The position numbers were made by a program, and so were the translations under genes. From contig CAZKBD010000005.1 of the NCBI GenBank assembly GCA_964550945.1, positions 1-47,961 of the forward strand: DNA of 47,961 nt. The letters run 5' to 3'. Below are positions 21,745 through 24,037 of this stretch, piece after piece. The DNA comes from an uncultured Methanosarcinales archaeon (GTDB lineage Archaea; Nanobdellota; Nanobdellia; Woesearchaeales; CAZKBD01). Below the pieces are notes generated by a model that saw nothing but the letters and a program-made list of their open reading frames with translations, ran no database searches and was not told the DNA's origin. Numbering within the stretch: the first letter of the stretch is position 1; each line of letters starts with the position of its first letter.

Positions 21745-21852
21745 ATTTAAACAGATAATACAACTAACTTAAATTTATATGATAAACGAAAAGCTAAAAT
21801 TTAAACAGATAATACAACTAACTTAAATTTATATGATAAACGAAAAGCTAAA
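21745..21852 (+). repeat. exact 54-bp tandem duplication spanning the CDF promoter and start
   Basis: ATTTAAACAG...GAAAAGCTAAA at 21745-21798 and 21799-21852. Confidence 0.9.
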
Positions 21853-22738
21853 TGCGGCAATAAAGTCAGTCTATGTAAATTCTGTACTGATCACAGTTAA
21901 ATTATTCACAGGCATATTAACCGGCTCTCTTGGAATAATTGCAGAGTTTATCCATTCATTTTTTGACCTTTTGGCATCTGTCTTTGCATACGTTGGGATA
22001 AAAAAAGCATCAGAACCAGCAGATAAACACCACCGATATGGCCATGAGAGAGTTGAAAATATCTCGAGCCTTTTTCAATCTGTATTGATAACATTGACAA
22101 GCATATTCATTCTCTATGAAGCTTACAGAAGGATCACAAAAGGAGGCCATGCAGTAAAAGAGAGCATTATAGGCATTATAGTGATGGTCTTGGCGCTTGT
22201 TGTTGATATTATATTCTCAAGATATCTCCATAAAAAGAGCGCAAAAACAGGGTCACCTGCGCTTGAAGCAGATGCTTACCATTTCTCAACAGATGTATGG
22301 AGCACTATAGCTGTAATAATAGGCCTAGGAGCAACCTCTTTAGGCTATCCTTTGTTCGATATTTTAGGGGCTGTTTTTGTCGCTTTGCTGATGTTATACC
22401 TTTCTGTCAGGCTTGGAATAAAAGCATTTGAAGTCATGCTTGACCATGTTCCTGATGATAGGCATCTTGAGGAGATCACTTCAACTATTGCAAAATATCC
22501 TGGAGTAAAAGGATTCCATTCGTTGAGGGCTAGAGAAGCCGGAAGCAGGATATTTGTTGATGTGAGCATACACCTTGATAAATCATTGGAACTTGAAAAA
22601 GCCCATAGTATAGCTGAGAAATTAGAATTAGCAATAATGAAAAGCTGCCCAAAGGTAAAGGAAGTAGTTGTGCATGTTGAGCCGGAATGCCTGCATGATT
22701 TAGAAAAGTTGTCAAAGAGTGAGAAACAGGTTAAATAA
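21833..22738 (+). CDS. cation diffusion facilitator (FieF-like)
   Basis: HSFFD, PAD..H.YGH.R.E, ADAYH..TD and VVVHVEP motifs. Confidence 0.95.
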   Translation: MINEKLNAAIKSVYVNSVLITVKLFTGILTGSLGIIAEFIHSFFDLLASVFAYVGIKKASEPADKHHRYGHERVENISSLFQSVLITLTSIFILYEAYRRITKGGHAVKESIIGIIVMVLALVVDIIFSRYLHKKSAKTGSPALEADAYHFSTDVWSTIAVIIGLGATSLGYPLFDILGAVFVALLMLYLSVRLGIKAFEVMLDHVPDDRHLEEITSTIAKYPGVKGFHSLRAREAGSRIFVDVSIHLDKSLELEKAHSIAEKLELAIMKSCPKVKEVVVHVEPECLHDLEKLSKSEKQVK

Positions 22739-22795
22739 AATATTATTTCTTAAAGAAAAGCTTTTAAATGAACAACAAAATCTATAAGTTAATTT

Positions 22796-22817
22796 GGGCT
22801 CATAGCTCAGCCTGGTT
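22796..22817 (+). pseudogene. truncated 5' copy of tRNA-Lys (22 bp)
   Basis: GGGCTCATAGCTCAGCCTGGTT identical to 23680-23701; preceded by BRE-TATA at 22755-22769. Confidence 0.9.
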
Positions 22818-22984
22818 TAATAAATTTCTCAAATTTTTGTTTCATTCAGTAAGTTACATTACTTATAAAACATCTCAACCATCAAATTATGATTTCTGTC
22901 CATTAGCACTGGACATGGACGCGTAGCGCTTATAAATAGAAATCAATTATCTAGTTTCAACCGGGGAAGAGTTTGTGATGTAAC

Positions 22985-23656
22985 ATGAATTCAACAAAAA
23001 TTAATTCAGGAAATATCAAAATAAGTGAAGGCTTAGCAGAATTCTATGGGGCTATGATTGGAGATGGTTGTTTATCGATATGTAATTCACGAAGTAGAAA
23101 AAAACCAATACATATTGTGCTATTAACCGGCCATACTCATGATGAACCTTATTATCGAAATGTTATTCGTCCAATATTCTACAAGGAGTTTGGTATTAAT
23201 GGCTACTTATGCTTTAGGAAACCGTATAACATGACTTATTTTAGAACTGATAGCAGGAGAATATTGTATTTTATGAATCAGCTAGGTTTTCCTATAGGGC
23301 TTAAGGGTAATATAAAGATTCCTGACTTGATAATGTCTGATGATCGATTGTCTCTAGCCTGTATTAGGGGAGTATTTGATACAGATGGGAGTATATATAA
23401 TCGTTATTCTAAGAAATATAAAAACCATGTAAAAAAGTATAACTATAAAAATATTGAATTTAAAATGAATAGCCAGAATATTATTGAGCAAACAAAAATA
23501 ATACTGGAAAGAAACGGGATTAGGACCTCTAACATCCGCAAAAATCGAAAAGCTTATGTTTTAAACATACATCGTCAAAAATCTGTTAGACAATTCTTTG
23601 ACTTGGTTAAGCCGAGTAATCCTTACCATAAAGAAAGATTTTTAAATCAAGGCTAA
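22985..23656 (+). CDS. free-standing two-motif LAGLIDADG homing endonuclease
   Basis: LAEFYGAMIGDG and CIRGVFDTDGSI motifs; no intein splicing motifs. Confidence 0.9.
   Translation: MNSTKINSGNIKISEGLAEFYGAMIGDGCLSICNSRSRKKPIHIVLLTGHTHDEPYYRNVIRPIFYKEFGINGYLCFRKPYNMTYFRTDSRRILYFMNQLGFPIGLKGNIKIPDLIMSDDRLSLACIRGVFDTDGSIYNRYSKKYKNHVKKYNYKNIEFKMNSQNIIEQTKIILERNGIRTSNIRKNRKAYVLNIHRQKSVRQFFDLVKPSNPYHKERFLNQG
23633..23647 (+). promoter_or_regulatory. BRE-TATA inside the endonuclease 3' end, putative tRNA-Lys promoter
   Basis: GAAAGATTTTTAAAT (codons ERFLN) about 33 nt upstream of the tRNA. Confidence 0.65.
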
Positions 23657-23679
23657 TCAACACAGAATGAGGCAAAAAT

Positions 23680-23900
23680 GGGCTCATAGCTCAGCCTGGT
23701 TAGACTTATGTAAAATAAGGACTTTAGCGATTGCCTCTTAATCATTCAGGGGTGAGCAATAGGTCGAGGGTTCAAACCCGAACCTTTCCCCTCACTTCGT
23801 TCGGGCAAATGTTCGATCGAAAACAGGAATGCTTCGCATTCGTTACTTTTAATAAAAGTAACCAAAATGGAAAGGTTTGGTGAAAGTCCCTTTGAGCCCG
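23680..23900 (+). tRNA. tRNA-Lys(CTT) with three introns (22/23 23704-23725, 37/38 23741-23754, 59/60 23777-23886)
   Basis: Acceptor GGGCTCA/TGAGCCC+G; stem ATTGC/GCAAT; BHB folds; T-tract downstream. Confidence 0.9.
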
Positions 23901-24037
23901 TTTTTTTCTTTTTCTTATATCAATATTTAAGAAGAGGCGTTCATACTATTGAGCGTAGCGAGATAATATAAAACTCATCGCAGTTTCCAAAGGTGCAGTC
24001 CTTTGGGTGGGAATCAATTTGAGACTGTTTTTATTTT

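Follow-up and report, generated by a model that had tools for sequence, protein, structure and literature searches.

How can a transfer RNA (tRNA) gene come to possess its 5' end twice, with a gene for a homing endonuclease lying between the two copies, and are the introns of such a tRNA gene connected with that neighbour? These questions are raised by a locus on contig CAZKBD010000005.1 of an uncultured archaeon of the order Woesearchaeales (GenBank assembly GCA_964550945.1, in which it is named a Methanosarcinales archaeon), of which positions 1 to 47,961 of the forward strand were analysed; this whole stretch of 47,961 nucleotides is called the window, and positions given without further label refer to it. 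A reading made beforehand from the letters of the window (the sequence-only reading) had proposed an integrase-free element which cuts the D-arm of an intron-less tRNA gene and then restores the gene, the intron giving immunity. The explanation preferred here for the locus as a whole, to which a probability of about 0.65 is given, is that an 884-bp cassette with a free-standing LAGLIDADG homing endonuclease gene (HEG) would have entered the D-loop of a chromosomal tRNA-Lys(CTT) gene, the tRNA gene being rebuilt downstream of it.

The locus is recognized by an exact 23-nt direct repeat (TGGGCTCATAGCTCAGCCTGGTT) at 22795-22817 and 23679-23701, the copies of which are spaced by 884 nt and enclose 167 nt of non-coding DNA and one open reading frame (ORF, 22985-23656). 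The upstream copy contains the first 22 nt of tRNA-Lys, called the stump below, and the downstream copy opens a complete tRNA-Lys(CTT) gene, so that the duplication noticed beforehand is real and exact. In the whole 1.97-Mb genome of 177 contigs this 22-mer has exact matches only at the two repeat positions, and a third match with one mismatch lies inside another tRNA gene. In such a fragmented metagenome bin, and with a conserved spacer that is multicopy in the same samples, a repeat-induced chimera might be suspected. Logan contigs, however, agree with the window with 0 differences (X1 over 22211-23637, X3 over 22501-23027 and 23549-23785, and X5, from another study, over 23548-23930), the stump junction being crossed by X1 rec3 and X3 rec11 and the rebuilt tRNA being spanned by X5 rec23. 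Since three runs from two studies yield contigs that read through both junctions without any difference, and since the same architecture occurs in unrelated assemblies, an assembly artefact is extremely improbable and both junctions are regarded as real.

The rebuilt tRNA gene is invisible to common tools. No tRNA was called at the locus by plain ARAGORN or by Rfam at E values up to 10, and therefore a custom finder of bulge-helix-bulge (BHB) motifs was written, which searches for two 3-nt bulges and a 4-bp central helix, places the cleavage after the second bulge base and passes the spliced candidates to ARAGORN. The top-ranked splice solution for 23680-23900 is a 75-nt tRNA-Lys(CTT) with three introns, all of which follow the BHB rule, and the product of the predicted splicing is called tRNA-Lys(ctt). 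The last base of the repeat is 23701 and the first of the D-arm intron is 23704, so the duplication stops 2 nt before the 22/23 intron, as had been pointed out beforehand. When introns were allowed, ARAGORN found only 12 tRNA genes in the whole genome, which is 92% complete, and most tRNA genes of this archaeon probably escape detection because of non-canonical or multiple introns.

The two tRNA 5' ends are each preceded by a TATA-like box, which ends 27 nt (22761-22769) and 33 nt (23639-23647) before the respective tRNA; at other tRNA genes of this genome the distance is, for example, 27 and 29 nt. Because only 23 nt separate the stop codon of the ORF (ending at 23656) from the tRNA (23680), the tRNA promoter must sit within the last ORF codons, and the second B recognition element (BRE)/TATA predicted there by the sequence-only reading does have a TATA-like box in the range of other tRNA promoters, which suggests that it functions as one. 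The promoter regions 22751-22772 and 23629-23650 are 82% identical, and the former fits the pattern AAAA..TTT(T)ATAAAT found upstream of other tRNA genes of the same genome. A promoter duplication as the sign of a longer repeat was considered and rejected, the consensus being common to other tRNA promoters of the genome.

The same anatomy could be described as a giant intron or a split tRNA, in which the upstream 22 nt are the real 5' exon and either everything up to about 23725 is removed or the parts are joined by trans-splicing. The duplicated GGTT can indeed pair with the GACT of the small intron, and a bare bulge-4 bp-bulge core from 22819 to 23725 can be derived by hand, but each of its flanking helices measures only 1 bp. 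Of 79 candidate long-range BHBs, the 10 with the highest scores all fail to give the correct exon junction; the best one (h1+h2 = 9) joins nonsense and falls in the range of slid controls, of which 2 of 57 score at least 9. In addition, a T-run follows the stump, and downstream there is a complete copy that has a promoter-like box of its own. The single large intron (22818-23725), named in the sequence-only reading as the competing case, thus finds no usable splice motif among the best-scoring BHB candidates, and an explanation of this kind is very improbable.

The ORF enclosed by the repeat matches Pfam LAGLIDADG_3 (PF14528) with 35.4 bits (cut-off 22.5, E 1.3e-8), the match covering the second domain only, and both acidic motifs, GDG (D27) and DTDG (D134), are invariant in 12/12 aligned homologues; the two-motif LAGLIDADG ORF described beforehand is thereby borne out. 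The AlphaFold 2 (AF2) model (pLDDT 88.3, pTM 0.87) has a pseudo-symmetric two-domain alpha-beta fold, of which the top Foldseek matches in the PDB are I-Tsp061I (E 5.4e-10), PI-PfuI and I-DmoI (1e-7), with TM values of 0.66/0.72 to 2dch, and phmmer of the enzyme against the PDB gave 0 matches. The enzyme is thus modelled as a monomeric two-domain LAGLIDADG protein which keeps both acidic residues. With I-Tsp061I and I-DmoI it shares the fold and the two motifs in one chain; those enzymes, in contrast, are encoded within rRNA BHB introns, while the gene here is free-standing, has its own presumed promoter and lies beside a tRNA gene, and the identity is only 16-19%. A third LAGLIDADG homologue of this genome, with 30% identity, lies at a contig edge (G000:C104:13-615, where G000 is this genome), its context being cut off.

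Relatives were sought in 41 genomes of the order, this genome included, each other genome being from a different family, and homologues were found in 12 of the 41 at about 30% identity, some genomes having several copies. A tRNA-fragment duplication, looked for beside the homologues, was found at three further loci (loci carry an L number): L014 has a 20-nt repeat, of which 18 nt are tRNA, at tRNA-Gly(TCC); L017 has a 23-nt repeat, of which 21 nt are tRNA, at tRNA-Thr(GGT), its HEG being truncated to 163 aa; and L148 has 19 nt with 1 mismatch at a tRNA with a tRNA-Gln-like 5' end. Like the 22-nt stump of the present locus, these three stumps terminate in the D-loop. At this locus, L014 and L148 the stump ends at or not more than 2 nt after G18G19 and T(T/C)AAT..AAA follows; there the final base of the repeat coincides exactly with the final base on the 5' strand of the BHB central helix. 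Each rebuilt copy has a non-canonical first intron, which starts 1-2 nt past the stump boundary at these three loci (2, 2 and 1-2 nt) and 7 nt past it in L017. Other candidates were rejected as stumps: an 18-nt T-arm repeat in L006 belongs to two ordinary tRNA-Gln isoacceptors, and L156 and L189 are paired tRNAs. In L225 two tRNA-Gln genes lie 1.4 kb apart with no HEG.

Furthermore, the endonuclease gene is tied to tRNA genes well beyond these loci. At 10 of the 16 loci of the first sample it is pressed on a tRNA gene, lying either upstream of it in the same orientation or antisense to it at its 3' end. When species-representative genomes were scanned with a profile, 465 relatives were obtained, of which the best 80 were kept, 60 from archaeal-labelled records (mostly Woesearchaeota, Pacearchaeota, Nanoarchaeia, Iainarchaeum and Micrarchaeota) and 20 from bacterial records of the Candidate Phyla Radiation (CPR). 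When adjacency was defined as a tRNA-like gene start within -60..+150 nt of the ORF end, it was found at 46/60 archaeal-labelled and 16/20 bacterial-labelled loci and at 0/64 among relatives on viral contigs, the last figure serving also as a control on the tRNA detector (Fisher p 7e-22, in which kin are not independent). The tRNA typically starts at -9 or -14 relative to the ORF end, because the ORF runs on to a TAG inside the tRNA. The partner tRNAs belong to different isotypes. In the 16 CPR records (among L136-L208) the homologue ends at or inside an 83-89-nt tRNA-like gene starting with GGAG/GGAA; docking on tRNA genes may cross the domains, or the CPR bins may be mislabelled. An antisense arrangement is seen in L019 (G005:C4), where the endonuclease ORF extends into the 3' end of an opposite-strand tRNA, and about 130 nt of the tRNA 3' part, with an extra T-loop insertion, are duplicated on the far side of the ORF.

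These results bear on the most familiar cause of such repeats. Direct tRNA repeats around foreign DNA are the classic att signature (PMC3293823, in its excerpted text), and the repeat here is exact, so the locus might be the relic of a tyrosine-integrase plasmid or virus in which deletions left the endonuclease gene as a passenger. The insert, however, holds no integrase or fragment of one, the LAGLIDADG gene being the only ORF of at least 60 aa lying wholly inside the 884 bp, which upholds the integrase-free character proposed beforehand. It is this gene that tracks tRNA genes, often with the ORF end inside the tRNA, and at four different tRNAs the stump is a 5' part of the gene that breaks off in the D-loop. 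Because the insert contains only the HEG and the HEG follows tRNA genes, an integrase relic is unlikely.

In addition to tRNA genes, the endonuclease gene is associated with 5'-proximal introns. The commonest partner is tRNA-Gln, and among 22 scorable HEG-adjacent tRNA-Gln genes the D-arm is intact in 11, interrupted after the D-loop GGYCA in 6, interrupted at 9/10 in 4 and unclear in 1; nine pattern matches were discarded on visual inspection because they are no tRNA 5' ends. A 5'-proximal intron (9/10 or 20/21) is thus present in 10/22 HEG-adjacent genes vs 1/30 HEG-free ones (p 3e-4), a comparison limited by the non-independence of kin and by the different ways in which the two samples were obtained. 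The HEG-free control consists of 30 tRNA-Gln genes from 29 loci of the order, drawn by the 5'-end pattern, with one locus of an unpublished genome left out, and its sole interrupted gene sits at a contig start. A search with a tRNA-Lys-like 3' half gave 29 loci from other genomes, none of which has an endonuclease gene, and both tRNA-Lys(CTT) genes among them (L314 and L315, of other families) have no HEG and an uninterrupted D-arm. In the comparison with empty sites suggested by the sequence-only reading, two relatives thus have tRNA-Lys(CTT) without cassette and D-arm intron, but no syntenic empty site was found, and a metagenome scan with the neighbouring CDF transporter, made in search of one, gave only matches of not more than 40% identity. 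A joint 22816>23752 seen in three runs was rejected as an empty site, being another organism's tRNA with different flanks.

The 167-nt spacer between stump and ORF was called hairpin-rich beforehand, a description which was not confirmed: its folding gives z = -1.40 and 20 of 200 shuffles fold equally well, and for a hairpin written TGATTTCT/AGAAATCA here and GGTTTTC/GAAAACC in L006, alifold on only 4 sequences gave no structure. The spacer is read instead, from its conservation pattern, as the endonuclease's own promoter and leader with a ribosome-binding site. Its core consists of CACTGGACA, about 8 nt, CGTAGCGC and then TTATAAA, after which come a conserved leader (TAGTTTCAAC), a GGTGAT-like ribosome-binding site and ATG. 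Spacer matches occur in 69/401 genomes of the order (four of them unpublished genomes); part of the spacer recurs with 82% identity at G000:C53 ahead of a decayed endonuclease-like ORF and also precedes homologous genes in other genomes, and in other genomes the motif with its TATA also heads sequences unlike the HEG leader. The CACTGGACA-N8-CGTAGCGC + TATA motif (22907-22937) is present in L028, L034, L035, L036, L041, L042, L046, L050, L051 and L052 as well, and by its sequence it looks like a shared operator-plus-promoter of some regulon. The second copy of the cassette upstream region in this genome (82% identical, G000:C53:12400-13123) lies at a contig end, and no tRNA stump was seen upstream of it. 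Several other contigs from groundwater and soil runs match 22895-22962 at about 88% with unrelated flanks, so related cassettes are common in those communities.

At the left end of the cassette, TTAATAAA directly follows the stump here and in L014, and a homologous T-rich stretch stands directly 3' of an intact tRNA-Gln(CTG) in L006. Archaeal RNA polymerase uses oligo-T terminators, and the T-run past the stump probably halts transcription from the stranded promoter.

From these features the following history is proposed. The insertion would have displaced the old promoter and the first 22 nt upstream, where they would remain as a dead stump with the T-run after it. The cassette would then carry, in order, its own promoter, leader and ribosome-binding site, the endonuclease gene, a tRNA promoter in the last codons and a replacement 5' exon, and because the cassette supplies promoter and 5' exon, a working tRNA gene would be rebuilt downstream. 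The 22-nt BHB intron, 2 nt past the junction, would be removed from the transcript by the host splicing endonuclease; at the DNA level it breaks the sequence most likely recognised by the enzyme, so the occupied allele would escape re-cutting. The route favoured is either gene conversion with an occupied allele as the donor or a one-ended invasion that begins on the 3' side and is completed by end joining, and both would leave a stump ending at the cut.

Several observations weigh against this history. No empty allele of the locus was found in the contigs of the sequencing runs or in the metagenome scan, and with an identity of only about 33% to the nearest homologue, recent movement is not traceable. 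In the larger sample few exact stumps are seen: a tRNA prefix of at least 10 nt stands upstream in 2/56 loci, with L148 as a further case, vs 1 and 0 in two controls; such rarity fits the decay of a useless remnant, and the perfect stump at the present locus suggests a young insertion. The similarity of the two promoters need not mean duplication, given the genome-wide tRNA promoter consensus. D-loop introns without a neighbouring HEG occur in L316, L319 and L331, so they persist on their own, and 15/56 HEG-adjacent tRNAs are not longer than 78 nt and so intron-free, which means that an intron is not required for coexistence with the HEG. Moreover, a tRNA-Met gene (C5:18856) and a gene for a tRNA with a UAU anticodon (C42:14040) of this genome are identical to positions 8-26 of the intron-less tRNA-Lys, and yet they are uninterrupted and HEG-free. 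Because these two intact genes with the same D-arm coexist with the endonuclease gene, the enzyme either reads outside the D-arm, or is inactive or silent, or cuts elsewhere; if it acts on the D-arm, it must also read the anticodon or acceptor stem. The UAU-anticodon tRNA (C42:14040-14236, by hand tRNA-Ile) contains two introns, a canonical one and a long one in the T-loop, and only one base distinguishes its first 26 nt from those of tRNA-Lys(CTT). Of the interpretation given by the sequence-only reading, the absence of an integrase, the tie of the enzyme to tRNA genes, the recurrence of stumps and the link with introns have stood, while the spacer hairpins have not and the simple model of immunity is opposed by the intron-free partners and the intact tRNA genes with the same D-arm.

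The same observations invite a more sedentary explanation, in which the gene has long resided beside tRNA genes or has been domesticated there, for instance as a DNA-binding regulator, and the stump is a scar of local duplication that has nothing to do with cleavage or the intron. The fold is also that of WhiA-type regulators (structure match of rank 26; Pfam LAGLIDADG_WhiA, E 2.7e-4), the conserved motif of the gene's own putative promoter heads other sequences too, and the intact tRNA genes just mentioned live together with the endonuclease gene. The acidic catalytic residues, however, are invariant in all 12 homologues, the gene is distributed patchily and in several copies in some genomes, different tRNA isotypes are partnered, and degenerate copies (the truncated gene of L017 and the decayed one at C53) are what is expected of selfish genes. 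Domestication is accordingly rated as rather unlikely, if slightly less so than an integrase relic, and insertion of an HEG cassette into the tRNA-Lys(CTT) gene is retained as the preferred explanation. The features on which it is based are collected in Table 1.

Table 1. Coordinates of the cassette, of the tRNA-Lys(CTT) gene and of their presumed signals in the window.
Feature	Position	Strand	Basis
Probable original tRNA-Lys promoter, BRE/TATA-like (TATA 22761-22769), with only the stump left downstream	22751..22772	+	Sequence; pattern of other tRNA promoters of the genome
Displaced tRNA-Lys(CTT) 5' stump, positions 1 to ~20a (acceptor 5' strand, D-stem 5' strand, most of D-loop)	22796..22817	+	Exact copy of 23680-23701
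Cassette left end: TAATAAA filler and T-run ATTTTTG, possible terminator of the stump transcript	22818..22840	+	Terminator role inferred
HEG upstream region: motif CACTGGACATGGACGCGTAGCGC (22907-22929), TATA TTATAAAT (22930-22937), leader with TAGTTTCAAC, Shine-Dalgarno-like TGTGAT	22841..22984	+	DNA conserved with L006, L017 and G000:C53
Free-standing monomeric two-domain LAGLIDADG endonuclease gene, 223 aa	22985..23656	+	Pfam, motifs, AF2 model
Putative second tRNA promoter, BRE/TATA-like (TATA 23639-23647), within codons HKERFLN	23629..23650	+	Function inferred
Complete tRNA-Lys(CTT); exons 23680-23703, 23726-23740, 23755-23776, 23887-23900	23680..23900	+	BHB finder and ARAGORN
Non-canonical BHB intron, tRNA position 22/23, 22 nt	23704..23725	+	GGTT/GACT central helix, 3-nt bulges, CTTAT/ATAAG inner helix (C4, h2=5)
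Canonical 37/38 BHB intron, 14 nt	23741..23754	+	C4, h1=5
T-loop BHB intron, 110 nt	23777..23886	+	C4, h1=5, h2=12
T-run after tRNA, likely terminator	23901..23914	+	Similar T-runs after tRNAs in relatives

The locus is flanked by the gene for the CDF cation-efflux transporter, which ends at 22738, and by a gene for a DUF7523/ACT protein on the opposite strand. A perfect 54-nt tandem duplication lies at 21745-21852, its second copy including the start of the CDF transporter gene (ATG 21833) and the first codons.

Several known mobile systems resemble the proposed cassette. In collaborative homing, free-standing endonucleases act together with ORF-less introns, as in the cyanophage psbA and Aeromonas phage nrdB cases. 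As there, the HEG stands beside and not inside the intron-containing gene, the intron lies at the presumed target, which it would protect, and enzyme and intron would travel together. Those cases, in contrast, comprise group I introns, phage protein genes and GIY-YIG or HNH enzymes, while here a protein-spliced BHB intron, a cellular tRNA gene and a LAGLIDADG enzyme of presumed cleavage activity are combined, and the cassette would also replace promoter and 5' exon. Mobile ORFs of fungal mitochondria (the Allomyces atp6 type) carry a replacement gene end; there, too, the element brings a copy of the displaced part of the host gene and the original is left as a remnant, but it is the 3' end of a protein gene, in frame, and here it is the 5' end of an RNA gene with its promoter. 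SegB of phage T4 is a free-standing homing endonuclease with its target in tRNA genes, but it is a GIY-YIG enzyme of a phage tRNA cluster, and no stump, rebuilt gene or intron is known to be associated with it.

The closest precedent is the tRNA-Thr(GGU) gene of Caldiarchaeum subterraneum, in which a 5' fragment (positions 1-27) is followed first by an insertion of 1,868 bp and then by a rebuilt tRNA that has gained an intron at 24/25 (Sugahara et al. 2012, PMC3293823). According to the excerpted text of that paper, the insertion comprises a multicopy non-coding part with nucleotide-level conservation and, on the same strand as the tRNA, an ORF of 813 bp, the new intron belongs to the inserted DNA, and an empty allele without insertion and intron exists in the same population (PMC3293823). 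The ORF was called a putative recombinase (by SVMProt) and att integration of the pNOB8 type was proposed, no homing endonuclease being mentioned in the excerpted text (PMC3293823). The layout of 5' fragment, insertion, rebuilt tRNA and new intron is the same as here, the ORF being compared by its description only, and another copy stands right after an intron-less tRNA, like L006 in the present sample; the repeat, in contrast, ends 2 nt before the intron here and 3 nt after it there (PMC3293823). Consequently, the architecture is less new than the sequence-only reading had assumed. Full-text searches gave no publication in which archaeal LAGLIDADG genes are connected with stumps or introns of tRNAs. 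In a 2026 census of Asgard tRNA introns several routes of arrival were tested and, according to its excerpted text, none was general (bioRxiv 10.64898/2026.10.13.758758).

For the origin of non-canonical introns, orphan fragments and split genes in archaeal tRNAs, this locus and its relatives offer a concrete and testable agent, that is, a nuclease gene tied to tRNA genes, with stumps in the D-loop and a statistical link to introns there. If the preferred explanation is true, the cassette would be a selfish element of unusually compact design, in which a terminator, its own promoter, the enzyme and a promoter for the host gene inside its last codons follow one another. A wider proposal, which is advanced tentatively and at less than even odds, is that tRNA-docking LAGLIDADG cassettes are a general engine of tRNA disruption in archaea, each arrival leaving a self-protecting BHB intron at the cut and an orphan 5' fragment with a live promoter. 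If so, decay of the HEG would leave a non-canonical intron behind, rearrangement would provide raw material for split tRNA genes, the 2012 Caldiarchaeum case would have to be read again as homing and not as integration, and the missing mechanism by which non-canonical tRNA introns arrive in DPANN and other archaea would be supplied.

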